A stretch of DNA of 64,000 bases. Source: an uncultured Eubacteriales bacterium. Lineage in GTDB: Bacteria; Actinomycetota; Coriobacteriia; Anaerosomatales; JAAXUF01. Shown in pieces: positions 1-50,653 of the stretch. Location of the stretch: NCBI GenBank assembly GCA_964644675.1, contig CAZXWK010000006.1, positions 16,341 through 80,340 of the forward strand, in the 5' to 3' direction. The notes under the pieces are model-generated. The model was given only the letters and a program-made list of their open reading frames with translations, was not told where the DNA came from and made no database searches. The stretch's first letter is position 1; each line of letters opens with the position of its first letter. The translations under genes and the position numbers were made by a program.

Positions 1-148
1 GGTCCTCGGCTCACCGCTTCGCTCCTGCGCCGCGAAGGGCGGCGGCGCAGACTCGCCGTGGACCCGCGCGCTCGGCTCGCCGGACTCCTCGGAAACCCTG
101 AAGGGCGGCCATCGCGCACTGTCGACACGTCTCGCGGCCGCACGCGCC

Positions 149-11346: not shown

Positions 11347-11379
11347 CCCACAAGCTGGTACGATGGTGAAGCTTGTGGG
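11347..11379. promoter_or_regulatory. 10-bp perfect inverted repeat enclosing a putative -10 of the cytochrome gene
   Basis: CCCACAAGCT-N13-AGCTTGTGGG. The spacer contains GGTACGAT (11357-11364). Confidence 0.5.
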
Positions 11380-14300: not shown

Positions 14301-17300
14301 GAGGTTCCGATGACTTCGGCGTCTCTCGGCAGCCACGGTGTCGACTCCCGGTCGAACAGCACCGACATCTACAAGTACGTGTACGGCACGCAGACCGGCG
14401 AAGGTTCGCTCTTCCCTGGTGCCTACACGCGGTACGGAGACGTCACGCCGCTTCTGCAGTCCACCGATGACAAGTTCGTGGTGTACGGGCAGGGCGACGA
14501 GCTCACGCTGAGGTTCCTCAAGGCGTCAGAGCCGGCACCGGGCACTCGGCGAAGCTTCGTCGTCTATGTCGACGGCTACTACAAGAGCATGAAGTCGGCA
14601 GTGGAGCATGCGGTCGACCCCATGCCGTTCGCGGCGATGTCGAACTTCCCGTACGGCGCCGACGAGCACTACCCGGATGACGCAGACCACGTCGCCTACC
14701 AGCAGGAGTACAACACGCGTCTCGTCGAGGCCACGACTTCGGCAGCGCCGCCACTCGTGGCCACGGCCGAGAGCGCGTCGACGCTGCATCGCTCCCTCAA
14801 TGTCGACTTCGTCTCCGTCGACGTCGGCATACGCATCTCCGCGTCTGAGGGGGGCACCGGCTGTACGGTGTGTCACGCGGTCCACGGCGGCGGCGCCAAG
14901 AACGCTGACGGCACCGAGACCACCGGCACACTGGTCGCGCCCGAGCCTCAGCTGTGCACCGGCTTCGGATCTGGTGGCTGCCACGACAACGCGACGCGCA
15001 CCGCCGCCGGCGTCAACGTCAACGAGCGGATCACCGCGAGCGGCAACAATCTGACGCACCACGATCTGACCGAGTTCGCACAGGCCCAGACGGGCGCGCG
15101 GATCACGTGCACCAACTGCCACGACCCGCACACCAACAACGCCCTCTCACCCAGCTCGAATCCGGATGCAATCACGGCAAGCCTGCCGACGTCGATGGGT
15201 CCGTACCTGGACGCAAATGGTGCGACCTACCTGCTGGTGGGCGCGATGCACGATGCGACCGCACCGACCATCACCTCCGGGCCCACGATAGCGGGCGCCG
15301 GCAGCGGGTCGACCGTGCTTACTCCGACGGTGACGTGGACCACCAACGAGCCCAGCACCTCCTGGATCGACTTCGGCGTTTCGAGCGGCGTCTACATGAT
15401 GTCGTTTGGCAACAACGCTCTCGTCACCTCGCACACCGCGACGGCGACGGGGCTCGAGGTCGACACCACCTACTACTGGCGCGCACGCACTGTCGACGCG
15501 CTCGGCAACGTGCGCACCAGCGCAGAGGCGACCTACAGCACGACCATGCCGGCAGGGTCGATCACTTCGGGACCCACGCTGAGCGGGAACGGGTGGTCGA
15601 ACTACCAGACTCCTTCGGTCACGTGGACGACGAGCGACCAGTTCAGCACGATCCTCGAGTGGGGCACTTCGAGCGGTTCGTACACCTCGGACTACTCGGC
15701 GTCGGCGATGACCACCGCGCACGCCGCCGCTATGAGCGGCCTGACCACCGACACGGTCTACTACTGGCGCGTTCGGGGCGTCGACGCCATCGGGCGCTCG
15801 GTCACGTCGGCTGAGGCGACCTACCAGGCATCTCCGCCGGCGCAACCTGTGATTCTGACCGGGCCGATCATCAGCGGTCCGACGTGGTCGACGTTCACCT
15901 CGCCGACCGTCGCGTGGACCACCTCGGGCCTCACAACCTCGTGGCTTCAGTACGGAACGTCGAGCGGCAGCTACACGTCGTCGGTCGGGACCAACACGCT
16001 TTCGACCACGCATTCGGTGACTGCGAGCAGCCTGACGTCCGGCACCGTCTACTACATGCGGGTCTTCGGCCTTGACCCCGTGAACAGGCTGGTCGTCTCG
16101 AACGAGTTCACGTACACGCCCACGACGCCGGCCGCGCCGATCATCACGGCGGGCCCGACGATCGACGGATCGACGTACGCGAAGTCCTCGAGCCCTGTCA
16201 TCACGTGGACCACCGGGGACATCGCCTCGACCTGGGTCGACTGGGGGACCTCTCCCGGCGTCTACACCTCCAACGTCAACGTTGCGGGTAACACCACGGG
16301 CCACACGGTCACGCTCTCGGGGATGACATACGGCACGACGTACTACTGGCGCGCGCGCAGCGTGGATCCGGATGGGCGCATCGTGACGTCCGGCGAGTCC
16401 GCCTACACACCGGTTGCCTACCCGAGCCCGTCTGTCGCCTCGGTCGCGCCCAACCCCGCGTACTACGACTCGAGCATCCAGGCGGGTGCGGCGGTCAGCG
16501 CGTCCTGTACCGTCTCGACGATCGCCAATTCGAACTCGCTCGAGTATCGGCTCTTGCTCGACAACGTGGCGTACGGGTCGTGGCAGTCGTCCACCGAGTG
16601 GACGCTGCCGACCGTCGGCGTCGGCACGCACGGTCTCAAGGTCGCGGTCCGTGACGCCGCCACGCCCAGTAGCGTGACGACCGGCACGACCGAAACCTAC
16701 TTCGACGTGGTCGACACGTGGGTGGGCTGGGGGTCGTGCCCCTTCGTGTACACGTGGGACGGCAGCAGCTACCGATTCGAGGCCGACACGCTCACGGCGG
16801 CCCGTATCGGCGGCCCCACCGCAACCGGTTTCCAGCAGCCCAACCCCAACGACGCCTACGTGGTCAAGACGGTTCCGGCGGTCGAGGACGGCACCATCAA
16901 CTTCCGGCTCGTCGAGGAGCGCAAGGAAGTCGACTATCTCGACACCTACAAGCTCTTCGCGGTCGACGCACCCGCGAGCCTCCAAGTCTTCGCCGAGAAG
17001 GCCGTCGCCGGCGTCCGCACCTTCCCGCCGCTCGGCTCGGCCCTGCACACCGTTCGCGCACTCCGGGCGCCCGTCTCGGCGGTTCGGACCGACACGGGCG
17101 AGGACGTGCTGGCGGCGATCTCGACAGACGACGGAGACAGGATCGCGCTGAACGAGAGCGCCGAGACGTCGTTCACCTACAAGACGATCGAGCTCGACCT
17201 CGGTGACCAGGTCGCGACGGCGCCGCAGGTCAAGGTAGTCATGAACGCACTCTCCGAGTTCCCGGTCACCCCTGAGGGCATCGAGCGTCGCTTCACCTTC

Positions 17301-19112
17301 GGCGCACCCACCAAGCTCGCCGTACAGGATGCCGACGGCACGTGGCGATCCGTCACGGCCTCGGTGGGCGCGGTTCCGGCGGCGCCTGAGTTCGAGCGGC
17401 CCTACGTGTTCGATCTGACCAAGGCGGTCAAGGGAACCACGGGCAAGGTGCGATTCACGTTCTTGTTCCGCACGCTCATCGACTACATCGCCGTCGACAC
17501 CTCGAAGGACGAGCCCGTCAAGGTGACCGAGGTCCCGCTCGTCTCGGCGAAGCTGTCCTACCACGGCGTGGACCGGTACGCCGTGGTCGACGGTTCGCCT
17601 TCGTACTCGTACGGCACGCCGGTCGCCGCGGGCACCTTCTTCCCGGGTGCCTACACCCGCTACGGCGAAGTGGCACCGCTGCTCGACGCGGTCGACGACA
17701 AGTTCGTCGTGGCCGGCCAGGGCGATCAGCTCGACCTCTCGTTCACGGCTCCCCAAGCGCCGGCGTCGGGGCTCGCGCGCCACTACGTCTTCTCGCCCTA
17801 CGGCTACTACAAGGACGCGAAGACGAGCGTCGCGAAGACCGTCGAGCCGCTGCCGTTCGAGGCGATGTCGAACTACCCGTACCCCGAGACCGAGCAGTAC
17901 CCGACCGATGCCGAGCACACGCGTTACCTCGAGGAGTACAACACGCGCGAGGAGAGCGGACCCGCCGTCCTGAGCAAGCTCGAGCTTCCGGCCCTCGACG
18001 GTACCGCGCTCGCCAGAGCCGCCGGGCCGCTGTCCGATCGGATCGCCCTTGCCGAGAACCCCGGTCGCGTCACCGGGCGGTGGCACGAGCGCCATGCGAC
18101 CGACGTCATCTCGCGCGGCACGACTGTGAGCCGCCTCGTCGCGTCGACCGCGCCCGTTCACTACTCGGTGAACACCGACTACAGCCTGCTGACCGTCGAG
18201 TACCGGCGCGACAGCGTCACGACGCTCGCGCCCGACGCGGGTTGGGCCAGTGCGGGCACGACGCCGACACCGGGCGAACCCGGAACGCCGGCAGAGGCGT
18301 CCGATCTCGACCAGGTTCTGACGCAGAACGGCACGTACTGGATCACGGATATCGCGGCCGCCGAAGGGGTCTACAACTGGCAGCTCATGCGCTATTCGCT
18401 GCCGACGACGCCGTCGCCCGCGGGTGTGCGCAGCGTCCGCGTCGCGTGGACCGGCCACGGCGAGCCGACGGCGAACCACCCGACCGCGCTCTACCTGTGG
18501 AACTTCAAGACCTCGCGCTTCGACGTCCTGGCGAGCGGCACGTACGGCACCGACACCAGCGTCAACTCGGTCCGAGACATGTCTGACGGCGGCGCCAGCT
18601 GCCTGACGTGTCACGACGGTTCCGCTCCCGCCGGCGTGAAGTTCCCCTCAGCGGGCAAGAACATCGCCGGCACCTGGGTGACGGGGGCCAGCGGGGACTG
18701 GCACGGTCCGCGCGTGGGACCAGGTGGCGGCGCCAGCACACCGCTCGCGGCACCCTACACCTACGGCCAGTCCGCGGCGATCCCGTGCGAGACCTGCCAC
18801 GATCCTCACGGGTCGGGCAGCCTCTATCACGTGCCGGCCATGGTCAACGGCGTGCCGAACGTGTCCGTCACTTCGAGCACGACCGTCGAATCGCTGTGCG
18901 CGCCATGCCACACCGGCACCGCATACGACTGGCACTACTGGACGTGCAACTACTGTCACAACGATGCCGACGCGCACGAGGGCGAGCCGACGATCCAGTC
19001 GGGCACCGACTGTCTGTCCTGTCACGGGCACGGCGTGACCTTCACTCACCCGCACGAACGTGCCTTCTGCCACGGTTGTTCGCCCGACGGCGCGCAGTGG
19101 CGTACGTTCTAG
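11373..19112 (+). CDS. Giant secreted multiheme c-type cytochrome with FN3-like repeats and two 'GSCPF' domains
   Basis: 15 canonical CxxCH motifs (CKSCH, CYVCH, CSGCH, CGSCH, CLACH, CVGCH, CDNCH, CYGCH, CTVCH, CTNCH, CLTCH, CETCH, CAPCH, CNYCH, CLSCH), one CTGFGSGGCH, several CxxCHxPH, Sec-type signal ending AATPAFA. True start uncertain (TTG 11373 or 11466). Confidence 0.93.
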   Translation: MWGIRTGGPLNARNSAIGGPGTLPTVSRLSALFEGRLSRYPVPSSIPAFVALTSAFVTFVLLACALAATPAFAANPHTGLSPSTDQCKSCHAGHGSPSSSSLLTESDQKALCYVCHDGTQSAYNVQQEFGDRADGSSSKASRHPVSPGQLECSGCHTPHRGPLEGNPMSLAAGASDETTGNAVCGSCHGAGSSLPQGDMMTNYVGTAHDTSMSASETGGSSIKCLACHEPHGSDNTALIATTVRSLSGETRTVSVNASTGSTPLCVGCHDTSDGTFGGGAAYMGTPHSSATTSTVASVNFPGTTGDPGDCDNCHSPHGTGKPHMARAAGDDLCYGCHDAAGTTKPAGYSYQGKSAYQGSGHATMNAGDIPQVVSLTASSTDFQAFESTQAPTPSSPGTPMTAEKTQRLVSVDSSYAVTSLATATGQHDYQVYRFKVPADVADTQWLNLSWAGYGEELAGYETSVSVWSKSANGGSGGWSRISNGLMADRTAVTAKLANAPDLIDANGYVWVMGDAKNVRQSTIVGTPSVSFPTSTTAQITWTTEGYASSWVDYGITSSYGSTVGTNTRTVSHSVTVPITAGGKYRFQVRGTARDGDSSSSGELGFSASVVTLVPAPDLSGTQTTFSQTFNWAHNDPAGEPYTYDIRIRTAYYPYDQTLTGLTASTLTTDVFCYGSSYAIYDWQVRGRDKDGYYTPWSAIDQFTVRDLTPNPGGSCPFLFVWNGFGYGFEADINTAGMIGSKNTSGYIKPDPKDRYILTNPPAETLGGYEFRMVEERNEIDYTDELKLYTVDLPEGVELVAEKGERGGTSPAFPGGLHTVQNLRAPVSVYRTDTGEDVTDAIALTDEQRVQLNEDANIGFDYKTLEIDLGDVSGAPQVKIVMNAQSLRPFTPEGLARQRSFGAGTKLEVQRTDGTWELVPTSEATLPNAMEFGRTYAFDITKAMHDTTGKVRFTYLFKTYIDMIGVDTSLDIPVYPVEVPMTSASLGSHGVDSRSNSTDIYKYVYGTQTGEGSLFPGAYTRYGDVTPLLQSTDDKFVVYGQGDELTLRFLKASEPAPGTRRSFVVYVDGYYKSMKSAVEHAVDPMPFAAMSNFPYGADEHYPDDADHVAYQQEYNTRLVEATTSAAPPLVATAESASTLHRSLNVDFVSVDVGIRISASEGGTGCTVCHAVHGGGAKNADGTETTGTLVAPEPQLCTGFGSGGCHDNATRTAAGVNVNERITASGNNLTHHDLTEFAQAQTGARITCTNCHDPHTNNALSPSSNPDAITASLPTSMGPYLDANGATYLLVGAMHDATAPTITSGPTIAGAGSGSTVLTPTVTWTTNEPSTSWIDFGVSSGVYMMSFGNNALVTSHTATATGLEVDTTYYWRARTVDALGNVRTSAEATYSTTMPAGSITSGPTLSGNGWSNYQTPSVTWTTSDQFSTILEWGTSSGSYTSDYSASAMTTAHAAAMSGLTTDTVYYWRVRGVDAIGRSVTSAEATYQASPPAQPVILTGPIISGPTWSTFTSPTVAWTTSGLTTSWLQYGTSSGSYTSSVGTNTLSTTHSVTASSLTSGTVYYMRVFGLDPVNRLVVSNEFTYTPTTPAAPIITAGPTIDGSTYAKSSSPVITWTTGDIASTWVDWGTSPGVYTSNVNVAGNTTGHTVTLSGMTYGTTYYWRARSVDPDGRIVTSGESAYTPVAYPSPSVASVAPNPAYYDSSIQAGAAVSASCTVSTIANSNSLEYRLLLDNVAYGSWQSSTEWTLPTVGVGTHGLKVAVRDAATPSSVTTGTTETYFDVVDTWVGWGSCPFVYTWDGSSYRFEADTLTAARIGGPTATGFQQPNPNDAYVVKTVPAVEDGTINFRLVEERKEVDYLDTYKLFAVDAPASLQVFAEKAVAGVRTFPPLGSALHTVRALRAPVSAVRTDTGEDVLAAISTDDGDRIALNESAETSFTYKTIELDLGDQVATAPQVKVVMNALSEFPVTPEGIERRFTFGAPTKLAVQDADGTWRSVTASVGAVPAAPEFERPYVFDLTKAVKGTTGKVRFTFLFRTLIDYIAVDTSKDEPVKVTEVPLVSAKLSYHGVDRYAVVDGSPSYSYGTPVAAGTFFPGAYTRYGEVAPLLDAVDDKFVVAGQGDQLDLSFTAPQAPASGLARHYVFSPYGYYKDAKTSVAKTVEPLPFEAMSNYPYPETEQYPTDAEHTRYLEEYNTREESGPAVLSKLELPALDGTALARAAGPLSDRIALAENPGRVTGRWHERHATDVISRGTTVSRLVASTAPVHYSVNTDYSLLTVEYRRDSVTTLAPDAGWASAGTTPTPGEPGTPAEASDLDQVLTQNGTYWITDIAAAEGVYNWQLMRYSLPTTPSPAGVRSVRVAWTGHGEPTANHPTALYLWNFKTSRFDVLASGTYGTDTSVNSVRDMSDGGASCLTCHDGSAPAGVKFPSAGKNIAGTWVTGASGDWHGPRVGPGGGASTPLAAPYTYGQSAAIPCETCHDPHGSGSLYHVPAMVNGVPNVSVTSSTTVESLCAPCHTGTAYDWHYWTCNYCHNDADAHEGEPTIQSGTDCLSCHGHGVTFTHPHERAFCHGCSPDGAQWRTF
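15330..16420 (+). repeat. Four tandem FN3/purple-acid-phosphatase-N-like repeats in the cytochrome
   Basis: VTWTT/VTWTT/VAWTT/ITWTT start at 15330, 15618, 15909 and 16200 (spacing 288, 291, 291 nt). Each repeat has W/L..(F/W/Y)G..SG.Y, H and T.YY(W/M)R. Confidence 0.85.
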
Positions 19113-27933: not shown

Positions 27934-29979
27934 TCAGCCGGCATGGACCCGGAGCAGCCGGGCGTTCACGGCGACGATCACCGTCGATGCCGACATGAGC
28001 AGGCCGCCCACGGCCGGGCTCATCATGATGCCGGCGCCCGCGAACACCCCGGCCGCGAGCGGTAGCGCGATCACGTTGTAGCCGAGCGCCCACCACAGGT
28101 TCTGCACCATCTTCGCGTAGGTGGCGCGCGACAGCTCGATGACGGCGGGTACGTCTCGGGGGTCGCTCCGCACCAGCACCACGTCGGCGGTCGCGACCGC
28201 GACGTCCGTGCCTGCCCCGATCGCGATGCCGACGTCGGCCGCCGCCAGCGGCGGGGCGTCGTTGACCCCGTCGCCGACCATCGCGACGACGCGCCCCTCG
28301 CGCTGTATCCGGCGGACGGTCTCGGCCTTCTCGGCGGGGAGGACTCGCGAGAAGATCCGGGAGATCCCGAGGACACGGGCGACGGCGGATGCAACCGCCT
28401 CGGTGTCGCCGGTGAGCATGACGGGCTCGACGCCCATGGCCGTCAGCCGGTCGATCGCGGCCTTCGACTCGGGCCTCGCGAGGTCGGAGAGGGTGATCGC
28501 GCCGATAGCGCGGTCATCGCGGAGCACGAACGCCACGGTGCGGCCGGATCGGGAGAGGTCCTCCGCGGCGTCGGGGACTACGACCGCGGGGTTCTCGGCG
28601 AGGTAGCCAGGGCCGACGACGGAGATCCGGTCGGGGCCGATCGTCCCGGTGACGCCCCTGCCCGGGATCGCGCGGAACTCGCCGACCGGCACCGACGCGT
28701 CGGTCGCGGCGGCGATGGCCCGCGCGACGGGGTGCTCCGAGAGTCGCTCGAGGGAGCCGGCGAGCGCGAGGACGTCATCGGTGGAGAGATCACCCCAGCT
28801 CAGGATCTCGTCGACGCCGAAGCGGCCGAGCGTCAGCGTGCCGGTCTTGTCGAAGACGACGGTGTCGATGAGCCGCGCGTTCTCGAAGGCCATCCGGTTA
28901 CGCACGAGCAGGCCGGAGCGCGCGCCGAGTGCCGTGGAAACCGCGACGACGAGTGGGATCGCGAGCCCCAGGGCGTGCGGACACGCGACCACCATCACGG
29001 TCACCGCGCGCTCCATCGCGAACGCAAGCGGCTGGCCCAGGGCGAGCCATGCGCCGAAGGTGACCGCCCCGCCCGCGAGCGCGACGATCGTGAGCCACAT
29101 CGCAGCTCGGTCCGCGAGGTCCTGCGTACGCGACTTCGACGACTGCGCCTGGCGGACCAGCTCGACGACCTGCGCGAGGTAGGACTCGTCGCCGGTCTTC
29201 GCGACGCGGACGTACAACGCTCCGTCACCGTTGACCGACCCGCCGATGACGGTGTCGCCCGGCGCGCGGCGCACGGGGACGGACTCGCCGGTGAGCAGCG
29301 ACTCGTCCACCGCCGAGACTCCCTCGGTCACGGCGCCGTCGGCGGGGACCTTCTCGGCGGGGCGGACGAGGACGACGTCACCAGGCACGAGGTCGGCCAG
29401 CGGGACGTCGGCGATCGCGCCCTCGGCGTCCACGCGGTGCGCGGCCGGCGGCAACAGCGCGGCGAGCGATTCGAGCGCCTTCGAGGCCTCGCCTATCGAG
29501 CGCATCTCGATCCAGTGGCCCAGAAGCATCACGTCGATGAGCGTGGCGAGCTCCCAGAAGAACGGCATGCCTTCGACGCCCAGAACCGTCGCGGCGCTGT
29601 AGCCGTAGGCCACCGTGATGGCGACCGCGACCAGCGTCATCATGCCGGGTGTGCGTGCACGAAGCTCCCGAACCATGCCCTTGAGGAAGGGGAGTCCACC
29701 GTAGATGTAGAGCACGGTAGAGAGCGCCAGCAGGATCCAGTCCGCGCCCGGCACGGCGACGATGCGGCCTCCGGGGACGAGCGGCACGCCCGGCGAGATG
29801 AGGAGCACCGGAACCGTGAGCGCCAGGCTCACCCAGAAGCGGCGTCTGAAGTCCGCGATCGAGTGGCCCTCGTGGCGGCCGGCGTCGTGCGAGCCGTGCT
29901 CGCGCCCGCTCGCTTGGGGGTGGTCGACCGGCGTGCCATGGTGGGTGGGCTCCGTGCGGTGGTTATCGCTCACCATCAT
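27934..29979 (-). CDS. copB: P1B-3 type copper-translocating ATPase (CopB-like)
   Basis: His-rich N-terminus, FFWELATLIDVMLLGHWIE, LTGES, CPHALGLAIP, DKTGTLT, GDGVND, LGYN, MSAST. Confidence 0.88.
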   Translation of the reverse strand: MMVSDNHRTEPTHHGTPVDHPQASGREHGSHDAGRHEGHSIADFRRRFWVSLALTVPVLLISPGVPLVPGGRIVAVPGADWILLALSTVLYIYGGLPFLKGMVRELRARTPGMMTLVAVAITVAYGYSAATVLGVEGMPFFWELATLIDVMLLGHWIEMRSIGEASKALESLAALLPPAAHRVDAEGAIADVPLADLVPGDVVLVRPAEKVPADGAVTEGVSAVDESLLTGESVPVRRAPGDTVIGGSVNGDGALYVRVAKTGDESYLAQVVELVRQAQSSKSRTQDLADRAAMWLTIVALAGGAVTFGAWLALGQPLAFAMERAVTVMVVACPHALGLAIPLVVAVSTALGARSGLLVRNRMAFENARLIDTVVFDKTGTLTLGRFGVDEILSWGDLSTDDVLALAGSLERLSEHPVARAIAAATDASVPVGEFRAIPGRGVTGTIGPDRISVVGPGYLAENPAVVVPDAAEDLSRSGRTVAFVLRDDRAIGAITLSDLARPESKAAIDRLTAMGVEPVMLTGDTEAVASAVARVLGISRIFSRVLPAEKAETVRRIQREGRVVAMVGDGVNDAPPLAAADVGIAIGAGTDVAVATADVVLVRSDPRDVPAVIELSRATYAKMVQNLWWALGYNVIALPLAAGVFAGAGIMMSPAVGGLLMSASTVIVAVNARLLRVHAG

Positions 29980-30257
29980 CCGCCCAGGGTGCGCAGGATC
30001 TCCTGGTACTGCTCGGGCGTGATCTCGCCACTCGCCAGGCGCCGCTTGGCGATGGCGACCGCCTCGTCGTGTCCCGCGTCACCTGCCGGAAGCGTGGGCG
30101 AAGCCGACTCGTGGCCTCGCGACGCCTTCACCGCCCAGACGACGAGTAGCGCGATCGCCACGATCAGCAGCACCGCGAACAGGAAGATGAGCAGTCCGCC
30201 GTACGGGTTGTATCCGCCCATCATGTTGTAGCCGTAGCCGTATCCTCGACCCATCAT
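29976..30257 (-). CDS. SHOCT domain small membrane protein
   Basis: [15 protein letters not shown], one TM helix, [18 protein letters not shown]. Translationally coupled to copB. Confidence 0.85.
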
Positions 30258-30417
30258 CGCGGGTCATCTCCTCTCGGGGCGACGAACCGCGTCGCCTCCT
30301 GTCACAGAGTGTCTGTACCCGCGTGGTGGACTCGGCGTTCCGGTCGCCCCGCTCGGGTACAAGCTGAGTGCGCGACCGAGCGCGTGCGGACGACCCGCCC
30401 ACCCGAGAGGAGCCGCG

Positions 30418-30831
30418 ATGCGCGAGAAGCTGCAACTGACCGACGATGAGTGGCGCGCGAGGCTGACGCCCGAGCAGTTCCGCGTGCTGCGGCGCGCGGG
30501 CACGGAACCGGCGTTCTCCGGGGCACTCACCGATACCTTCGAGCCGGGCACCTACGTGTGCGCAGGGTGCGGCTCGACGCTGTTCTCCTCGGCGGCCAAG
30601 TTCCACTCGGGCTGTGGCTGGCCGAGCTTCTGGGAGCCGATCGAGCCCGATGCGGTGACCGAGCATCCGGACTACAGCTTCGGCATGCACCGGGTCGAGG
30701 TGCTGTGCGCGGTCTGCGACGGACACCTGGGCCACGTGTTCACGGACGGCCCGGAGCCGACGGGGCTGCGCTACTGCATCAACTCGGTCTCGATCGAGTT
30801 CGAGCCCGGAGAGGCGCCGGCGACCGACTGA
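30418..30831 (+). CDS. msrB: Peptide-methionine (R)-S-oxide reductase
   Basis: GTEPAF, CAGC and CAVC zinc motifs, [24 protein letters not shown]. Confidence 0.97.
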
Positions 30832-30949
30832 ACCCGCGAGCGAGCCGCTGTGGCCCCTCGTGGAGTGCTCGTGAAGGTGCGGTTTCGGGGCCTTCTCGGC
30901 ATGGAACTTGCGTTAGCGCGTACGAAGTCGCACCCGTTGAGGGGATCGA

Positions 30950-31315
30950 GTGTTCTCCACAGCTCACATTCGCAGGATCGCGTTGCCGCTGGTGGTCGTG
31001 TTGGCGATCGTCGCTATCGCCGTGCCCACCTGCCGGATGATCAACTGCGAGATGGACATGAGCAAGGGCATGCCGTTCATGCCCCGTGGCCTGGGCATCT
31101 ACAATCCCGCGTGTGGCGGCGAGTGGCTGACCACGACGGGTCCCAAGGGCGTCGTCCCCGGTGGCGCCGAGTCGCTCCTGCTTTCGTTCGCCGTCGCTGT
31201 CGTGATGGCGGTCGTCCTCTTCGCGCCGCAGCTGTCGGCGCGCCCGGTCTTCGCGTTCTCGGCGCAGCCTCCACCGCCGCCCGAGGACCCTCGCGGAGAG
31301 CGATTCCGAGTCTAA
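30950..31315 (+). CDS. Two-TM Cys/Met-rich small protein with polyproline tail; candidate copper-sensing leader/arrest peptide
   Basis: Hydrophobic segment, then CRMINCEMDMSKGMPFMP...AC, second TM, then tail QPPPPPEDPRGERFRV. GGGGA RBS before GTG. Confidence 0.7.
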   Translation: MFSTAHIRRIALPLVVVLAIVAIAVPTCRMINCEMDMSKGMPFMPRGLGIYNPACGGEWLTTTGPKGVVPGGAESLLLSFAVAVVMAVVLFAPQLSARPVFAFSAQPPPPPEDPRGERFRV

Positions 31316-31319
31316 TACC

Positions 31320-31418
31320 CTCCTCGTAAGTGTCTGAGCTGCGCGTTTGTGCGCTCTCTGACGCTGTCCGCGGGTACCCTCTGTTCCGAGGGTGCCGTCC
31401 GCCTTCATCTACGAGGAG
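31320..31418 (+). promoter_or_regulatory. RBS-sequestering RNA structure (anti-SD / SD)
   Basis: CTCCTCGTA (31320-31328) is the exact reverse complement of TACGAGGAG (31410-31418), which contains the next gene's SD. Internal hairpins at 31341-31354 and 31374-31395. Confidence 0.65.
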
Positions 31419-31427
31419 TCACCTGAA

Positions 31428-32672
31428 GTGTCACCACTGTTCGCATCCATGTTCGCGTTGGGGCTCGCCACGAGCCTCCACTGCATCGGGATGTGCGGGC
31501 CCATGGTCGTCACCTACGCCGTCAAGGGCGAGGAGTCAGGTCCCTGGTACCGCAAGCTCATCCCCAACGCGGCGTACCAGATAGCCAAGATCACGAGCTA
31601 CGTGCTCGTGGGCCTGGCGCTGGGTGCGATCGGCTCGGCGTTCAACCTCAACGGCATCCGCCCCTGGATCATGCTCGCCGCCGGCGTCTTCATGATCATC
31701 TTGGGGCTCGGGATGACCGGAAAGGTGCCGTGGGCCGCTCGTCTCACCCCGCGTCCCCCCAAGTTCCTCATCACCGCGCTCTCGAATCTGCGCCGCAAGG
31801 CCAAGGACGACGCCAGTGAAGGCGAGTCCACCCTGGCGACGCCCATCTCGTTCGGGCTCCTGACGGGCTTCATGCCGTGCGCGCCGCTCCAGGGCGCTCA
31901 GATCGCGGCGGCTGCCACGGGCAGCGCCATCACCGGAGGCGTCGCGATGCTCGCGTTCGGCCTCGGCACGGTGCCGCTCATGCTGCTGTTCGGCACCACG
32001 GCCAGCATGATCCCGATGAACTGGAAGCATCGACTCAACATCGTGCTCGCCATCGTCGTGATGGTGTTCGGCCTCGTGTTCATCAACCGGGCCGCGATGC
32101 TCCTTGGTTCGCCGGTCACGTTCGGCAGCGTCAAGACCGCTGTCGTCGGCACGAGCCCCACCGCGGGGAGCACGGACTTCAAGAAGGGCGCCGATGGCGT
32201 CGTCGAGGTCCCGCTCGCCATCATCAACACGCAGTACCAGCCGAAGCAGGTCACCGTCCCGGCCAACCAGCCGGTGCGCCTGGTGATCGACCGCCAGGAG
32301 GATGCGGCCTGCTCGGACAGACTCGTGATCCGCGAGCTCGGAATCGACGCCGCGCTCGCGCCCAACGGCGTGACCAAGGTCGACATCCCGGCGACGGCCG
32401 CCGGCACGTATCAGATGACGTGCGGCATGGGCATGATGGACGGCCAGCTCATCGTGATCTCGGGATCGGGCGCTGCGCCGGTCTCGAGTTCGACGCCGTG
32501 GATCTGGCTCGCGCTCGCACTGGGCGCGGCCGGCGGCGCGGTCTTCCTCGCGAGCCGCAAGTCGACCGCCGAGAAGGACGCGGCTGATCACAAGCCCGCG
32601 GCAAAGTCCTCGCCCAAGCCGGCGACCAAGCCGGCGACCAAGTCCCAATCCAAGAAGTCATCCAAGCACTAG
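31428..32672 (+). CDS. DsbD_2/TauE-like membrane protein fused to a cupredoxin domain
   Basis: SLHCIGMCGPMV, GFMPCAPLQ, cupredoxin-like ACSD...TCGMGMM, Lys-rich tail. GAGGAG before GTG 31428. Confidence 0.85.
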   Translation: MSPLFASMFALGLATSLHCIGMCGPMVVTYAVKGEESGPWYRKLIPNAAYQIAKITSYVLVGLALGAIGSAFNLNGIRPWIMLAAGVFMIILGLGMTGKVPWAARLTPRPPKFLITALSNLRRKAKDDASEGESTLATPISFGLLTGFMPCAPLQGAQIAAAATGSAITGGVAMLAFGLGTVPLMLLFGTTASMIPMNWKHRLNIVLAIVVMVFGLVFINRAAMLLGSPVTFGSVKTAVVGTSPTAGSTDFKKGADGVVEVPLAIINTQYQPKQVTVPANQPVRLVIDRQEDAACSDRLVIRELGIDAALAPNGVTKVDIPATAAGTYQMTCGMGMMDGQLIVISGSGAAPVSSSTPWIWLALALGAAGGAVFLASRKSTAEKDAADHKPAAKSSPKPATKPATKSQSKKSSKH

Positions 32673-32700
32673 AATCGAATCGACGAAGGAGACAGACCCC

Positions 32701-33297
32701 ATGGCTATGAACAAGCCGACCACCTCATCCGACACCATCCGCTGGGCCGCCATCGCCCTGCTCGTGGTCGTCGCGTTCTTTGGCGCGTACCGGTTCGCGT
32801 CCGCTCGCAGCAGCCTTGCCGCGGCCCAATCCCCGACCACGGCGGCCCAGGGGGCCGGCGCGACCGGCGGTGCTGGGTCGACCGGCGTCCAGACGGCGGC
32901 CAACGGAACCGCCCCCTCCACCCAGGCCGGCGGTTCGGGCTCAAGCTCCGGTGCCGGCTGCGCGTGCTGCGGCGGCTCGGGTACGCCGACGACCAACGGC
33001 GTGACCGGAACCGAGACCGAGGGCGTCGCGACGCTCGCGGACGGCGTGCAGAGGATCTCGGTCGACGTGACGACCGTCTACAACCCCAACGTCATCAAGC
33101 TCAAGGCCGGTGTCCCCGCCGAGATCACCTTCAGCCAGGCCGCCGGGTGCACGGGTATCGTGCACTCCGCCGACCTCGGGTTCGAAGAGGACCTCTCGGC
33201 CGGCCCCAAGACCGTGAAGCTGCAGGGCCTCCAGCCCGGCACCTACGCGTTCTCGTGCGGCATGGACATGGTCTTCGGCAAGATCGTCGTCGAGTAG
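32701..33297 (+). CDS. Membrane-anchored cupredoxin-domain protein (CupA-like)
   Basis: N-terminal TM, Gly/Ser/Thr linker with GCACCG, AGCTG...[14 protein letters not shown]. Confidence 0.85.
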
Positions 33298-33313
33298 AAC
33301 GAGGCGACAGACT

Positions 33314-36300
33314 ATGCATACCAATCCCGACACCGTGGTCGTGCGGCTGCGCGTCGATGGCATGCGATGCCACTCGTGTGAGCGCAAGCTCACCGCGTGG
33401 CTGAGCGACATCGAGGGCGTCGAGTCCGTGGATGCCAGCTACGCCGAGAGCCGCGTGACCATCTACGCCCTCGAGGGCGTGCAGTTCGAGGACATGATCA
33501 AGGCGATCATGCGCGCTGGCTTCCTGCCCGGCGCCCCGAGCGTCATCGAGGACCCCGACGCCGAGGCGGCCGTCGAGCTCCCCATACAAGCCGAGAAGTC
33601 CGACGAGGCGGTCGCCCAGGCCCTTCGCGACGCGATCGCGTCCGTCGAGGCGAGTGGCTACCCGGTCGGCGACCGCGAGCAGCAGAGCCTGTTCGACGAG
33701 AACGACGTCGAGATCACGGTCCCGGAGCCGATCGCGGCACCGGGCACCGAAATTGCAGGCGGCTTCGTCGAGCCTGAGGTCGTGCTGGGGCCGGTCGCAG
33801 CCGTCGAGGCTGCGGAGGCCGCTGCGCCCGCCGAGCCCGAGCCGGCACCGGCCGAGCCGGTACTCGTGATCGAGCCCGAGCCCGAACCCGAGCCCGAGCC
33901 CGAGCCCGAACCCGAGGCCACCACGCCCGCGTCCGAAGCTCCTGCGCGCTACCGCCGCCTGAAGCTGAGTTCGGTCGGCATGCACTGCGGCGCGTGCGAG
34001 AAGCTCGTCACCATGCACGCCAAGCAGATCGACGGCGTGGTCGCAGCCGAAGGCGACGCCGAGGCCCAGACACTCACGGTCTACCTCGACCGCGAGGTCT
34101 CGACCGACGATCTCGCCGGCGCGATCTTGGCCGCGGGCTTCACGCCGGGCACCCCGCTCGTGCTGGGCGTCGCCGTCGTGAGCGAGCTGCCCGGTGCCAC
34201 GCCGGCTGAGGCCGCGCCCGCGCCGAGCGCCGCTCCCGCTGTCGTCGAGGCGGCCCCTGCGGCAGTCGCAGTCGCTTCCACGGTAGCCGCCGCTCCCGCC
34301 GCGCCCACTCCCGAGCCCGCCGCTCCCGTCACGAGCGCGTGCCCGGTGCTCCCCCCGGAGCCCGAACCGGCTGTGGCTGCGGCCTCCGAGCCGCGCGACG
34401 CGTACGCCGCTCCCGTCACGCAACCGCTCGCGGTGCGCGACGCCACCTTCGCGGTGGGCGGCATGACGTGCGCGTCCTGCTCGGCAATCATCGAGAAGAC
34501 GCTCGGCAAGACCGCCGGCGTCGAGTCGGCGACGGTCAACCTCGCGACCGAGAAGCTGTCGGTCGCCTACGACCCCGACGTCATCGACACGGACGGCATC
34601 AAGGCGACCGTGGACGGCCTCGGGTACTCGGCGATGCTGCTCGGCGCTCCCGCCGTCGCGGCCGAAGTGCCCGGAAAGGTCACGCTCGGTCTGCTCGGCA
34701 TGACGTGCGCTTCGTGCGCCGCCGTCATCGAGAAGACGCTCACCAAGCTTCCCGGCGTGAAGTCGGCGACCGTCAACCTCGCCGCCAACAGCGGCACGGT
34801 GGAGTTCGACCCCAACGTCATCGGCATCGACGAGCTCATCTCGGCGGTGCGTGGCGCGGGCTACGACGCGATGGTGAAGGTCGAGCAGATCCCCGGCGCT
34901 TCCGACACCGTCGACGTGCAGGCCGAGGCGCAGGCCAAGGCGTACAAGCACGAAGTGTTCATGTTCTGGTTCGCGGTGGCCTTCTCGGTACCGCTGTTCG
35001 TCATCGCGATGGTGCCGCCGTTCATGGATCTGGTCCCGCTCAAGGTCTCCGAGTGGCTCGCCGCCACCGTCGGCGGAGCGTGGGATCCCATGATGGTCGG
35101 CAAGTACCTGATGTTCCTGCTGGCGACGCCGGTGCAGTTCTACGCCGGCGCGCGGTTCTACAAGGGCGCGTACCACGCCATCAAGCGAGGGTCGGGCAAC
35201 ATGGACCTGCTCGTGGCGATCGGCACGTCGGCCGCGTACTTCTACTCGGTGGCCGCCACGTTCATCCCGGCGGTCGAGATGGAGCCCGCGTTCTACGAGA
35301 CGTCTGCGCTCCTCATCACGTTCGTGCTCCTGGGCAAGCTGCTCGAGGCGCGGGCGAAGGGCAAGACCTCCGACGCGATCAAGAAGCTCATGGGGCTCGC
35401 CGCCAAGACCGCACGCGTCGTGCGCGGCGGCGAGGAGATCGACATCCCCGTCGAGCAGGTCATCGTCGGCGACCTCGTGGTCGTGCGCCCGGGCGAGAAG
35501 GTCCCGGTCGACGGCGTCGTCATCGAGGGCTCCTCGGCGATCGACGAGTCCATGCTCACCGGCGAGTCGCTGCCGGTCGAGAAGCACGAGGGCGACCAGG
35601 TCATCGGCGCCACCATCAACAAGCTCGGCAGCTTCACGTTCCGCGCGACCAAGGTCGGCGCCGACACCGCGCTCGCCCAGATCGTCCGGCTCGTCGAAGA
35701 GGCCCAGGGCTCCAAGGCGCCGGTCCAGCGTTTCGCTGACCGCATCAGCGCCGTGTTCGTCCCGTTCGTCATCGGGGCCTCGCTGCTCACCTTCTTCTTC
35801 TGGGCGTTCGCGGGACCCGTCATCTTCGGCGCGCAGCCCGACCCGTCGGCGGTGTTCCCGCTCTTCGAGCCGATCACCATGGCCGCTGCGACCAACGGCT
35901 GGTGGATCGCCGCGCTGCTCGCCGGCATCGCCGTCGTCGTCATCGCGTGCCCGTGCGCGCTGGGTCTGGCCACCCCGACCGCGATCATGGTCGGCACCGG
36001 CCGAGGCGCCGAGAACGGCATCCTCATCAAGTCCGGAGACGCGCTCGAGACCGCGTACAAGATCTCGGCGATCGTCTTCGATAAGACCGGAACGCTCACC
36101 CACGGCAAGCCCGAGGTCACCGACATCGTGCTCGCCGATGGTCACGACGTGGACCGCGTCTTCAAGCTTGCCGCCGCGCTCGAGCGCAACTCCGAGCACC
36201 CGCTCGCCGAGGCGGTCGTCGCCCGCGCCAAGGCCGACGGCATCGAGCTGCCGGCCGTCGAGGGTTTCTCGGCGGTACCGGGGCACGGGGTCGAGGGCAC

Positions 36301-37084
36301 CGTCATGGGCATGAAGGTCGCGTTCGGCAACCGCAAGCTCATGGCGCGCGAGAACATCGATATCTCGGCCTGGGAAGAGCGCATCAGCGCGCTCGAGGAC
36401 GAGGGCAAGACCGTCATGCTCGTCGGCGTCAACGGCGCCAAGCTCGCGGGCATGGTCGCCGTCGCCGACACGCTCAAGCCCAACTCCGCCGAGGCCGTCA
36501 GTCGTCTCACCGCGATGGGCGTCAAGGTATTCATGATCACCGGCGACAACGCCCGCACCGCTCGCGCCATCGCGTCCGAGGCCGGCATCACCCCCGACCA
36601 GGTCCTCGCCGAGGTCCTGCCGGAGCACAAGGCCGAAGAGGTCGCGAAGCTCCAGGCGCAGGGGTTGACCGTAGCCATGGTCGGAGACGGCATCAACGAC
36701 ACGCCCGCGCTCGCGCAAGCCGACGTCGGCATCGCGATGGGCGCCGGCACCGACGTCGCGATGGAGACCGGCGGTATCGTGCTCATCAAGAACGACCTGC
36801 GCGACGTGGTGACCGCCATCGAGCTGTCCCGCGCGACCATGCGCAAGATCCGCCAGAACTTCTTCTGGGCGCTCGGCTACAACACCGTGCTGATGCCGGT
36901 GGCCGCGGTCGGCCTGCTCTCGCCGTTCCCGTGGGTCGCCGGTGCCGCCATGGCGTTCTCGAGCGTCTCGGTGGTCACCAACTCGCTGCTCCTGCGGCTC
37001 TTCAAGCCCAGCCTCAGGACCGCCGAGAAGACCACGCCCCCGACAGACACCCCTCCCGCGGTGGCCGAGCCGGCCGCCGCCTGA
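33314..37084 (+). CDS. copA: P1B-1 copper-translocating ATPase with four HMA domains
   Basis: HMA motifs GMRCHSC, GMHCGAC, GMTCASC twice; [50 protein letters not shown]. Confidence 0.95.
33872..33916 (+). repeat. 6-nt tandem repeat GARCCC encoding (Glu-Pro)n in the CopA linker
   Basis: gagcccgagcccgaacccgagccc... translates as [15 protein letters not shown]. Confidence 0.9.
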
Positions 37085-37095
37085 AAGGACCGTCA

Positions 37096-37926
37096 ATGAA
37101 GCGCATCCTCCTCGCGAGCGTGATGCTCGCGCTTGCCGGGGCCGCCCTCGTGGCCACCGGTTGCACCACCTCCAAGCAGGCCGAGACCGACACCTCCAAG
37201 GTCTGGGGCTACGTCGCCTCGGCCGACAAGGCCCAACTCGAACTCGACGAGCAGCAAGACGGCGCGAAGTCCCTGGTCGTCAAGCGCGTACTCGCCCCGA
37301 GCGACGCGTGGGTCGTCGTCCACGCCGACATGAACGGCAAGCCGGGCATGCGCGTGGGCCTCGCCCACGTGAAGCGCGGCGAATCGCTCGACGTGAAGGT
37401 CCCGCTCAAGGACGTGACGACCCCCAAGGTCATCGTCGCCGTCCACGCCGACAAGGGCACCGCCGATAAGTTCGACTTCGACATGATGAACAAGGAGATG
37501 AGCCCGGACCGCCCGTTCTTCGTCGGCGGCTCGGAACTCGCCAAGGTGGCAACGGTCCGGCAGTACGGGATTGAGGCGGCTCCCGGCGAGGCGTCCCTGA
37601 CGGCGTCGGACCAGCCGGGCGCCACGAGCGAACTCGTTGTCGGCAACGTCCTGGCTCCGAGCGACGCGTGGGTCGTCGTGCACCTCGAGAAGGACGGTGC
37701 GCCCGGAAGCCGCGTGGGTCTGGTGCACGTCCGCGCGGGCGAGACGAGCAACGTGGTCGTCAAGCTCGATCCGCTCCCGCTGACCGACAACCTGCTCGTC
37801 GCGCTCCATGCCGACAAGGCCGACCCCGAGCTTTTCAACTTCGATATGGAAGACACCGTGAACAGCGCCGATCAGCCGTTCTTCATCGACGGCAAAGAGG
37901 TCGCGATCAAGGTTCCGGTGAAGTAG
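37096..37926 (+). CDS. Lipoprotein with two tandem DUF7282-like domains
   Basis: Lipobox-like LVATG|C; two copies of VLAPSDAWVVVH...PG.RVGL.HV..GE...V.V.L...HADK...F.FDM...D.PFF..G. RBS AAGGA before ATG 37096. Confidence 0.75.
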   Translation: MKRILLASVMLALAGAALVATGCTTSKQAETDTSKVWGYVASADKAQLELDEQQDGAKSLVVKRVLAPSDAWVVVHADMNGKPGMRVGLAHVKRGESLDVKVPLKDVTTPKVIVAVHADKGTADKFDFDMMNKEMSPDRPFFVGGSELAKVATVRQYGIEAAPGEASLTASDQPGATSELVVGNVLAPSDAWVVVHLEKDGAPGSRVGLVHVRAGETSNVVVKLDPLPLTDNLLVALHADKADPELFNFDMEDTVNSADQPFFIDGKEVAIKVPVK

Positions 37927-49753: not shown

Positions 49754-50470
49754 CTACACGGCGCCCGTCGTGGCGGCTGAGCGGCGCCGCAGGCGATCGA
49801 GCACGGGCCGCAGCTCGTCGGAGGTGACCACGCTCCCGTGCGCCGGGTAGATGGTGGTCGCGCCCTCGTCGAGCAGCAGCTGCCAGCTGTCGAGCACCTG
49901 CTCGACGTCGAGCGCCATGTTCGGGAGCTCGGGCGGCGTCACGCCGGGGATCCGCCGGCCCTGCACCGTGTCGCCGACGAACGCCGAGCCGTCGTCGAGA
50001 ATGACGGTGAGGTCACCGTCGCTGTGCCCGGGGGTGTAGACGACGCGGCCCGGCAGGCCGTACTCGTCGAGCCGGGCACCGTCGTCGAGGCCGAGCACGG
50101 TGCCGGCTCCGCGTAGCCCCATCCGCGGGAGCCAGGTCATCGCGAGCCGTTCGTACACGCGCGAGTAGGGGTTGAGTCCGGGCGACGCGATCATCGCGCC
50201 GGTAGCGACGATGCGCGCGTGCTCCGGATGCGCGACCACGTCGAAGGGGCCGGCGACGTCCTGTATCTCGGGCAGCCCGCCGAAGTGGTCGGCGTGACCG
50301 TGCGTGACCACCGCAAGCCGCAGCTCGTTGGGCGACCGGCCGAGGGAGGCGATCTTGGCGAGCACCGTCTTGCCGTGGCCGACCATGCCCGCGTCGATCA
50401 GGAACAGCGCCTCGTCGGTCTCGATGAGGTGGCTGTACGCCGCGATTCCCTGTAGCCGATGTATCCGCAT
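49754..50470 (-). CDS. MBL-fold metallo-hydrolase
   Basis: LIDAG, THGHADH, TPGHSDG, VGD, YPAHG. Confidence 0.9.
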   Translation of the reverse strand: MRIHRLQGIAAYSHLIETDEALFLIDAGMVGHGKTVLAKIASLGRSPNELRLAVVTHGHADHFGGLPEIQDVAGPFDVVAHPEHARIVATGAMIASPGLNPYSRVYERLAMTWLPRMGLRGAGTVLGLDDGARLDEYGLPGRVVYTPGHSDGDLTVILDDGSAFVGDTVQGRRIPGVTPPELPNMALDVEQVLDSWQLLLDEGATTIYPAHGSVVTSDELRPVLDRLRRRSAATTGAV

Positions 50471-50653
50471 GGGTCGAACAGGAGCAACGCCCGTGCCGCG
50501 CGCGTCTCACGTGCGGCTCAGACTCCTTCACGGTAGACCGAACGGTCACGCTGAACGGCGTCTGTTCGGCACGGGAATCGCTCATCAACGTGCACGGGTG
50601 AATCCCGAGGGCGCAATCCCGCGACCCGCCGTTGTAGAGGAGGTGAGCCAGTA

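Follow-up and report, generated by a model that had tools for sequence, protein, structure and literature searches.

An open reading frame (ORF) of 121 codons heads a copper-handling operon in a 64,000-nucleotide stretch of DNA (contig CAZXWK010000006.1, positions 16,341 to 80,340; hereafter the window, G+C content 68%) from an uncultured bacterium placed in the Coriobacteriia, and the analysis reported here indicates that translation of this leader very probably controls access to the Shine-Dalgarno (SD) sequence belonging to the next gene, which encodes a membrane protein with DsbD_2 and cupredoxin domains. The leader ends in a proline-rich tail that is the best-conserved part of a small protein family, and the RNA that follows its stop codon starts with an anti-SD sequence that forms a helix, P1, with the downstream SD. 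We propose that tail and helix together constitute a translation-operated arrest or pause switch at the head of the copper operon, a proposal that we regard as evenly poised; a programmed pause encoded by the tail, taken as a claim in itself, seems to us slightly favored, and modulation of that pause by copper or redox state seems plausible at somewhat less than an even prospect.

The leader has the codon-position composition of a coding sequence (G+C of 0.65, 0.51 and 0.85 at the first, second and third positions, the last being GC3), and its translation reads, in order, ...AVPTCRMINCEMDMSKGMPFMPRGLGIYNPAC...SLLLSFAVAVVMAVVLFAP-QLSARPVFAFSAQPPPPPEDPRGERFRV, followed by the stop codon. The architecture put forward in the original prediction, namely a transmembrane (TM) segment, a Cys-containing loop, a second TM segment and a proline-rich tail at the head of a copper operon, is borne out, with a tail of 29 residues. 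A word-indexed search returned 35 close homologues, all of 106-134 aa, and an exhaustive profile search of 1.84 billion representative proteins returned 89 clusters at 50% identity, nearly all of 110-130 aa and matching from end to end. The leader protein has no match in Pfam (E <= 0.1) or NCBIfam, and a literature search for the family found no paper describing it; judged by these comparisons, it belongs to a real, small, unannotated family. The genome records that contain the family are metagenome-assembled genomes titled Coriobacteriia or other Actinomycetota, with several titled 'Eubacteriales'. The loci that we compared comprise 50 from scans of genome and metagenome collections and 13 from single-protein look-ups. 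Across them the leader heads the gene order DsbD_2-cupredoxin, cupredoxin, CopA, the DsbD_2 neighbor being kept in all but one locus; the homologues have an equivalent purine-rich SD ahead of the start codon, and the distance from the start to the PxC of the loop is 25 residues in 26 of the 27 scorable loci.

The leader protein begins with a basic N-terminus followed by a hydrophobic helix (TM1), and an AIA-V sequence could be a signal peptidase site. AlphaFold2, run with the family alignment, predicts two helices only (residues 6-32 and 72-91) joined by a low-confidence loop (predicted local distance difference test score, pLDDT, 45-58) in which no folded domain is predicted, a result that fits a sensor or leader better than a structural domain. 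The Cys residues of the loop follow the pattern C28-x4-C33, with C55 and flanking Met in addition. P26, T27, C28, M30, C33, C55 and P93, like the tail positions, do not vary among close members; over the whole family, to about 25% identity, the body of the protein keeps only C33 and C55 unchanged. From the end of the second helix (TM2) to the C-terminus the family median is 29 residues (interquartile range 29-30; exactly 29 in 59 of 99 members), which is also the value in the window. The suggestion that the tail roughly equals the length of the ribosomal exit tunnel thus holds as a fixed TM2-to-stop distance of about 29 residues.

The tail is where conservation is concentrated. In the window, the 29 residues that follow TM2 are PQLSARPVFAFSAQPPPPPEDPRGERFRV; the family consensus is PPPP(P)xxP[RL]GxR[FL]x[VLI]-stop and is kept even at about 25% overall identity. 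A conserved C-terminal motif had been anticipated among homologues, and it was found as the best-conserved part of the protein, always ending at the stop codon: in 43 of 43 distinct DNA sequences the stop directly follows the motif (TGA in 22, TAG in 11 and TAA in 10). The invariant Pro, Gly and Arg residues of the tail are encoded by all of their synonymous codons across these 43 sequences, and because synonymous sites vary so freely, selection on the tail, as read from the alignments, is on the peptide and not on the RNA. Codon choice in the tail is nevertheless unusual. GC3 over the last 15 codons is 0.64, compared with 0.83 in the rest of the ORF, and is the lower of the two in 37 of 42 loci; Gly at position -6 is GGA in 30 of 43 loci (8% usage in the window's genes), and 23 of the 31 Arg at -2 are encoded by AGA or AGG (7% usage). 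The last 15 codons of the window's leader include the rare CCT, CCA, GGA and CGA in a genome with GC3 near 0.9. Part of the diversity of proline codons could reflect avoidance of frameshift-prone CCC-C runs (PMC8129111).

At codons -6/-5, 15-18 nt ahead of the stop, GGAGA[GA] resembles an SD, and either a slowing of the ribosome or pairing with the anti-SD could result. The anti-SD can form six of seven pairs with codons -7 to -5 (CGC GGA G) in the window, with no covariation evident in an inspection made by eye only. A search of solved structures gave no match to the tail, and in about 400 kb of locus DNA each locus has the motif just once. Its apparent occurrence as a module on other proteins was rejected, the four candidates (P0098, P0051, P0074 and P0122) being chimeras, frameshifts or low-complexity matches. 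RAPP, RAGP, RGPP and Pro-stop, sought in the tail from a published motif list (PMC10987492), are all absent.

The second conserved element lies immediately beyond the stop codon. The segment 31300-31440 folds at -54.4 kcal/mol (z = -3.6, with none of 200 shuffles as stable), and in this minimum free energy (MFE) fold P1 closes two hairpins, P2 and P3 (Table 1). The complementarity of anti-SD and SD and the two enclosed hairpins had been predicted and stand; the predicted extension of the helix to about 13 bp does not, since P1 has 9 contiguous bp in the window (12-13 in some homologues), and the gap after the stop is 4 nt and not five. The 9-mer is not rare, with 4 copies in the window against 1.8 expected, so that it is the fixed position and the conservation in homologues, not the rarity of the word, that exceed chance.

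That conservation was assessed in 41 distinct intergenic regions of 99-131 nt. The anti-SD lies 3-5 nt past the stop in all 41, and in all 41 the spacer's own MFE fold pairs the SD hexamer with nucleotides +4 to +10 after the stop. The first 16-18 nt past the stop pair with the SD region in duplexes of -13 to -22 kcal/mol; P1 encloses exactly two hairpins in 34 of the 41 spacers and, with 90 nt of the ORF included in the folded sequence, is kept in the MFE fold of 37; folding z-scores have a median of -4.2 and are below -2 in 38 spacers, which makes the spacers far more structured than expected from composition. In a MAFFT alignment with a mean column identity of 48%, full or nearly full invariance is limited to the P1 arms and two G positions, AGGAG being invariant, and RNAalifold recovers P1 from this alignment unaided. 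The pairs that flank the SD covary: columns 17/138 are GC in 29 sequences, AU in 6, UA in 2, CG in 1 and GU in 1, columns 16/139 are UA in 32, UG in 2, CG in 1 and GC in 1, and a single compensatory change is seen in each of columns 14/141 (CTCCTTG/CAAGGAG in L011) and 15/140 (CTCCTCATGA/TCATGAGGAG in L017). Four of five far more distant members (L057, L060, L061 and L062, at about 25% identity) keep the anti-SD; L059 is without it, and L063 ends at a contig edge. The check for anti-SD/SD conservation and covariation that had been proposed thus came out in favor of the helix, and the pattern in P1 is, by these alignments, that expected of a selected helix.

The sequence of P3, in contrast to the arms of P1, is not conserved among homologues. 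Its 5' arm, GGTACCCT, had been flagged as a possible internal -10 element that would bypass the switch; this fails, as the arm is not conserved and a scan found no sigma-70-like promoter. Palindromes of the TACCC...GGGTA type, which recall CsoR operators, occur at 31373-31396 in the window and in P3 of L001, L017, L024, L026, L011 and L047. A CsoR-like operator in P3 was rejected, the TACCC/GGGTA words being found in a minority of the 41 spacers, and the palindromes are probably coincidental in a GC-rich hairpin.

The geometry of a terminating ribosome connects the two conserved elements. A ribosome shields about 15 nt 3' of the first base of its P-site codon, as toeprinting shows, so that with the stop codon in the A site it covers about 9-11 nt past the stop, which is the core of the anti-SD. 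When the first 10-13 nt (stop included) were forced to be unpaired in the 41 sequences, the median predicted probability of an unpaired SD rose from 0.001 to 0.36, or about 300-fold. The conserved PPPPP run is at codons -15 to -11, or 33-45 nt ahead of the stop; a ribosome on this run reaches only to about 18 nt before the stop and P1 stays closed, and any regulatory pause must therefore fall at the last 1-3 codons or at the stop. The role first assigned to the proline-rich tail accordingly stands as regards its conservation but not as a stall on PPPPP itself, from which the anti-SD is out of reach. On the protein side, a TM helix about 28-30 residues from the peptidyl-transferase center feels a pulling force.

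From these features we infer the following sequence of events, from the targeting of the chain to the membrane, through a force-dependent pause, to copper as the signal and the sign of its effect. By default the operon would be off, with the 112-nt spacer folded as a three-way junction and P1 hiding the SD that serves DsbD_2-cupredoxin. The nascent chain would be directed to the membrane by its N-terminal TM or signal sequence, and residues 26-74, the Cys/Met loop, would be exposed on the outside before the ribosome releases the chain. With the ribosome at the stop codon, PPPPPxDP[RL]GxRFxV would fill the exit tunnel, PPPPP lying deep in it and GxR[FL]x[VLI] beside the peptidyl-transferase center, and TM2, which ends 29 residues earlier, would be just out of the tunnel; the ribosome would sit over the anti-SD, blocking P1 and leaving the downstream SD free. 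The tail would slow termination, a programmed pause or arrest prolonging the stay of the ribosome at the stop, until TM2, on entering the membrane, and the loop, on folding, exert a pull that ends the pause and whose strength sets how long it lasts. Cu(I) bound to the Cys/Met loop, or failure of disulfide formation, would weaken the pull, so that copper would lengthen the pause and allow more initiation on the DsbD_2-cupredoxin gene; the cupredoxin, CopA and the lipoprotein would be raised as well, through tight gene spacing and avoidance of polarity. The gaps between the genes downstream of DsbD_2-cupredoxin are 28, 16 and 11 nt, and their expression is likely coupled to that of this first gene. 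Since the first controlled gene encodes a DsbD-type transporter of thiol reductant, the extracytoplasmic thiol state may be an alternative or additional signal.

Several considerations weigh against this proposal. The pause itself is a prediction from the comparison of sequences. The leader is long for a leader peptide, has two TM helices and in close relatives is conserved over its whole length, and it may instead function as a membrane protein with a tail that binds a partner. Nothing in the tail corresponds to a known arrest motif; its final residue is V, L or I, with U at +4 in 34 of 41 cases, an ending that in E. coli is an efficient termination context. The covariation score of P1 (0.159 compared with 0.093 in shuffles, none of 500 reaching it, and at most 0.104 in slid registers) comes from spacers that are related by descent, so that the shuffle controls exaggerate its significance, and the covariation is confined to the flanks because the SD core cannot vary. 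Covariation in P2, which is found in the same place in nearly all homologues, was not demonstrated: a MAFFT alignment of this region, which is crude, gave no RNAalifold structure, and on the same crude alignment a hand-drawn P2 structure scored no better than one slid by two columns (+2), because the stems are GC repeats. The divergent L059 (848-1340), the sole locus seen without an anti-SD, has a similar tail (DPPDPPDDPLFGRLLI); its downstream gene encodes a cupredoxin, not a DsbD_2 protein, and its 113-nt spacer forms hairpins in which the SD is unpaired. Finally, the sigma-54-type promoter element described below suggests that copper control may be mainly transcriptional.

Several of these observations would be accommodated by plain translational coupling without programmed arrest, in which the small protein has a membrane function of its own, for instance as a copper- or thiol-handling partner of the DsbD_2-cupredoxin protein, its tail is a cytoplasmic interaction or sorting motif, and P1 only ties translation of the next gene, in occurrence and in amount, to that of the leader. 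A protein of 121 aa with two TM helices, three conserved Cys and the same partners throughout would suit such a role; any ribosome at the stop would briefly open P1; and the efficient-looking termination context, the lack of a known arrest motif and the retention of the tail without the anti-SD in L059 all favor it. We nevertheless judge this explanation, serious as it is, to be unlikely. The tail and not the putative metal-binding loop is what is best conserved to 25% identity, ending exactly at the stop throughout the family; TM2 and the stop lie a fixed distance apart, about the length of the exit tunnel; and rare codons are enriched in the tail. Stoichiometric coupling typically involves short overlaps, unlike these spacers of 100-130 nt and their two inner hairpins, the brief opening of P1 at normal termination would leave the 30S subunit little time to bind, and AlphaFold2 predicts no folded domain. 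Classical coupling through a long-range anti-SD helix has in common with the leader family that upstream translation unfolds a structure masking the downstream SD, but it requires no conserved C-terminal peptide, fixed TM-to-stop distance or terminal rare codons, whereas the leader family has all three.

Control could also be essentially transcriptional, exerted at a sigma-54-type promoter by a distant enhancer-binding activator that senses copper or envelope stress, with the structured spacer serving mainly mRNA stability or processing and the SD pairing having little regulatory effect. The only strongly conserved block in the msrB-leader spacer is GGCA[CT]G-N4-TTGC; in the window, GGCATGGAACTTGC fits the -24/-12 consensus for sigma-54 (TGGCACG-N4-TTGCW-like) in both sequence and spacing. 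A GG-N10-GC element of this kind lies 35-70 nt before the leader in nearly all loci with upstream sequence, distant members included (for example GGCACGATACTTGCA; positions 5941 in L014 and 148 in L057). Because the element matches this consensus, transcription of the leader operon probably needs a trans-acting activator encoded elsewhere. The earlier statement that the island has no CsoR, CopY or CueR gene stands for the ORFs scanned, with the qualification that this element implies an activator at another site: among 35 window ORFs, in a scan that was not exhaustive, there was no CsoR, CopY, MerR, ArsR, RpoN or enhancer-binding protein; the neighborhoods of the homologous loci have no CsoR, CopY, MerR, ArsR or sigma-54 activator; and a motif search of these loci found no rpoN or enhancer-binding activator gene. 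The element is unexpected, as Actinobacteria are reported to lack sigma-54 (PMC3162934), and a literature search on sigma-54 in Coriobacteriia returned nothing relevant.

The ubiquity of this element and the very stable folds of the spacers are what a transcriptional explanation has in its favor. We think it improbable as the whole explanation: it leaves the fixed 3-5 nt between stop and anti-SD, the covariation of the SD flanks and the conservation of the tail unexplained, the window ORFs scanned include no rpoN or activator gene, and the reported absence of sigma-54 from Actinobacteria speaks against it. It is moreover compatible with translational control and not exclusive of it; the sigma-54-type element does not conflict with the switch, and copper control need not be translational only. 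Two side observations concern these elements and regulators. In L063, a gene for a PadR-family regulator (3367-3795, minus strand) is divergent and 5' of the leader; the other loci are without an adjacent regulator. A second GG-N10-GC match in the window, GGCACGGGCGTTGC (50484-50497, minus strand), precedes the start of a minus-strand metallo-beta-lactamase-fold gene (49754-50470) by 14-27 nt, making two such matches in the window against 0.33 expected.

A further explanation takes its model from CruR of Bordetella pertussis: a paused ribosome at the end of the leader would block Rho, or its absence would let Rho act, so that the main output would be premature transcription termination before or within the DsbD_2 gene and not SD access. 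CruR does act in this manner (PMC9426467). Without translation the DsbD_2 gene would be exposed to Rho polarity, which may contribute as a secondary effect. RNA that is G+C-rich and tightly folded is, however, a poor loading site for Rho, and the spacer is of this type; the conserved feature is specifically sequestration of the SD, and no intrinsic terminator was found, so that we consider this explanation quite improbable. It is highly improbable that the three-way junction is a ligand- or protein-binding RNA (a riboswitch or regulator site) that opens P1 independently of leader translation, for although a junction with an SD-sequestering closing helix is conserved, its junction and loop sequences are not (only the P1 arms and two G positions), an Rfam scan of 29500-33500 gave only one chance-level miRNA match (E = 0.42), and the fixed distance to the stop codon would be left unexplained.

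The logic proposed for the arrest or pause switch is that shown for CutF of Rhodobacter capsulatus, a DUF2946 protein of the cutFOG operon with a polyproline tail, an SD-shielding stem-loop and extracytoplasmic copper sensing, whose translation is required in cis (PMC9973294; bioRxiv 10.1101/2025.02.05.636593). The leader family shares with CutF a small exported protein encoded first in a copper operon, a cysteine motif outside the cytoplasm, a polyproline-containing C-terminus within the last 15 residues and a downstream stem-loop shielding the next gene's SD. The differences are considerable. CutF is secreted by way of a cleavable signal peptide, has a CxxxC motif and stalls at PPP, whereas in the leader family a second TM helix lies 29 residues from the stop, the loop is of the Cx4C...C/Met type, the conserved tail is longer (PPPPPxDPxGxRFxV) and the PPPPP run is too far from the stop to unmask the SD; the RNA of the family is a long-range helix closing a three-way junction, unlike the CutF stem-loop. 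The gene downstream of CutF encodes a multicopper oxidase, as against DsbD_2-cupredoxin and a P1B-ATPase here, and the hosts are Pseudomonadota in the one case and actinobacterial (Coriobacteriia-like) in the other. CruR, likewise of DUF2946, resembles the leader in being an upstream ORF with a Cys motif and a conserved, arrest-like C-terminal motif at a conserved spacing, in heading a copper-related operon and in regulating post-transcriptionally (PMC9426467). CruR has CxxC, with RAPP three residues from the end, and acts by Rho-dependent termination over a 162-nt spacer, copper relieving the arrest and turning the operon off (PMC9426467); the leader family, by comparison, is without RAPP, conserves SD sequestration at the RNA level and is expected to work by induction.

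Membership of the leader in DUF2946 was ruled out by its sequence, by its Cys motif (Cx4C...C as against CxxC/CxxxC) and by the second TM helix; by hmmscan, none of 49 family members matches PF11162 (DUF2946) at E <= 1. The different Cys spacing and the absence of RAPP stated in the original prediction are in this way upheld, as is the distinctness from DUF2946. An N-terminal export signal and a proline-rich motif within about 15 residues of the end (RAPP itself being absent) are features held in common with DUF2946 proteins, which are single-pass and have their Cys motif and C-terminal motif about 45 residues apart; here TM2 intervenes, and the fixed spacing is the 29 residues from TM2 to the stop. 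With SecM, MifM, VemP and ApdA/ApdP/RQH, the leader family shares an N-terminal membrane-targeting segment and a conserved C-terminal peptide at a fixed distance; in those systems an SD-sequestering structure is opened by a paused ribosome that pulling force releases, and by analogy we propose the same here. Some newly found arrest peptides act with the stop codon in the A site (PMC10987492). The SecM group monitors Sec or YidC from upstream of secA, secDF or yidC, and its motifs (RAGP, RAPP and others) are absent from the leader family, which lies upstream of copper genes and whose chain, unlike those arrest peptides, bears a metal-binding-type loop. By these analogies the leader would be of the same functional type as CutF and CruR while being unrelated to them in sequence, with a distinct tail, TM-gated geometry, pause site at the stop codon, operon and phylum. 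More tentatively, it may define a new, DUF2946-unrelated class of nascent peptide, PPPPPxDP[RL]GxR[FL]x[VLI]-stop, that arrests at termination, is gated by the force from a TM helix positioned exactly one exit-tunnel length (29 residues) from the stop codon, and carries a Cys/Met loop that is exposed co-translationally and reports the extracytoplasmic copper or thiol redox state directly to the ribosome, so that in Actinomycetota the SD of a copper-export operon is unmasked; it would lie downstream of a sigma-54-type promoter although the phylum is reported to lack sigma-54.

Table 1. Coordinates of the leader, its RNA elements and the adjoining genes in the window
Feature	Position	Strand	Remarks
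msrB	30418-30831		Gene 5' of the leader
Sigma-54-type -24/-12 promoter-like element GGCATGGAACTTGC (GG-N10-GC)	30898-30911	+	38 nt 5' of the leader start codon
Leader SD GAGGGG	30939-30944	+	5 nt 5' of GTG 30950
Leader ORF	30950-31315	+	121 aa, GTG start; TM1 or signal sequence, predicted extracytoplasmic Cys/Met loop, TM2, predicted cytoplasmic tail
Loop, residues 26-74, PTCRMINCEMDM...C55 (segment also PTCRMINCEMDMSKGMPFMP...C55)	31025-31171	+	Three Cys, many Met
TM2, residues ~73-92	31166-31225	+	Hydrophobic helix
C-terminal motif PPPPPEDPRGERFRV	31268-31312	+	Candidate arrest/pause peptide; best-conserved segment of the protein
Stop codon TAA	31313-31315	+	Next base U
Anti-SD, P1 5' arm CTCCTCGTA	31320-31328	+	4-nt gap after the stop; pairs with 31410-31418 (MFE fold)
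Hairpin P2	31329-31365	+	MFE fold of the window
Hairpin P3	31370-31402	+	MFE fold; contains GGTACCCT (31373-31380, its 5' arm)
P1 3' arm TACGAGGAG	31410-31418	+	Exact complement of the anti-SD; contains SD GAGGAG (31413-31418)
DsbD_2 + Cupredoxin_1 membrane protein gene	31428-32672	+	GTG start at 31428, 9 nt past the SD; PF13386 2e-46, PF13473 9e-18; would be directly controlled by the switch
Cupredoxin (Cupredoxin_1)	32701-33297	+	
CopA, Cu(I) P1B-ATPase	33314-37084	+	4 HMA domains and CPC motif
DUF7282 protein	~37096-37926	+	Lipoprotein-type signal

Some features of the neighborhood deserve mention in their own right. The gene directly 5' of the leader is always msrB, accompanied by msrA in several loci (L053, L055 and L056), and there may be a functional link between methionine sulfoxide reductases and the Met-rich copper proteins beside them. 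The 198-aa cupredoxin of the operon has a TM anchor and a Gly/Ser/Thr-rich linker with a CACCGG motif, and its residues 16-92 give a faint, sub-threshold match to DUF2946 (E = 0.022). A second P-type ATPase of 681 aa without HMA domains (27934-30257, minus strand) has a start that overlaps by 4 nt the end of the gene for a 93-aa SHOCT-domain protein, this pair being divergent from msrB. Farther away, the window contains a very long ORF of 2579 aa with coding-type GC3 (11373-19112, plus strand).

To our knowledge, the only two metal-sensing leader peptides studied are CutF and CruR, both DUF2946 proteins of Pseudomonadota. The leader family would be an independent solution in another phylum, with a testable geometry of 3-5 nt from the stop to the anti-SD and 29 residues from TM2 to the stop. 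If the proposed switch is real, its tail would be a new arrest sequence acting at termination, and the order of conserved C-terminus, stop and anti-SD would provide a search rule for leaders that Pfam searches miss. It would further mean that a sensor of membrane-insertion force can be coupled to metal sensing, and that P1B-ATPase copper-efflux operons can be controlled by translation, without an adjacent CsoR, CopY or CueR.

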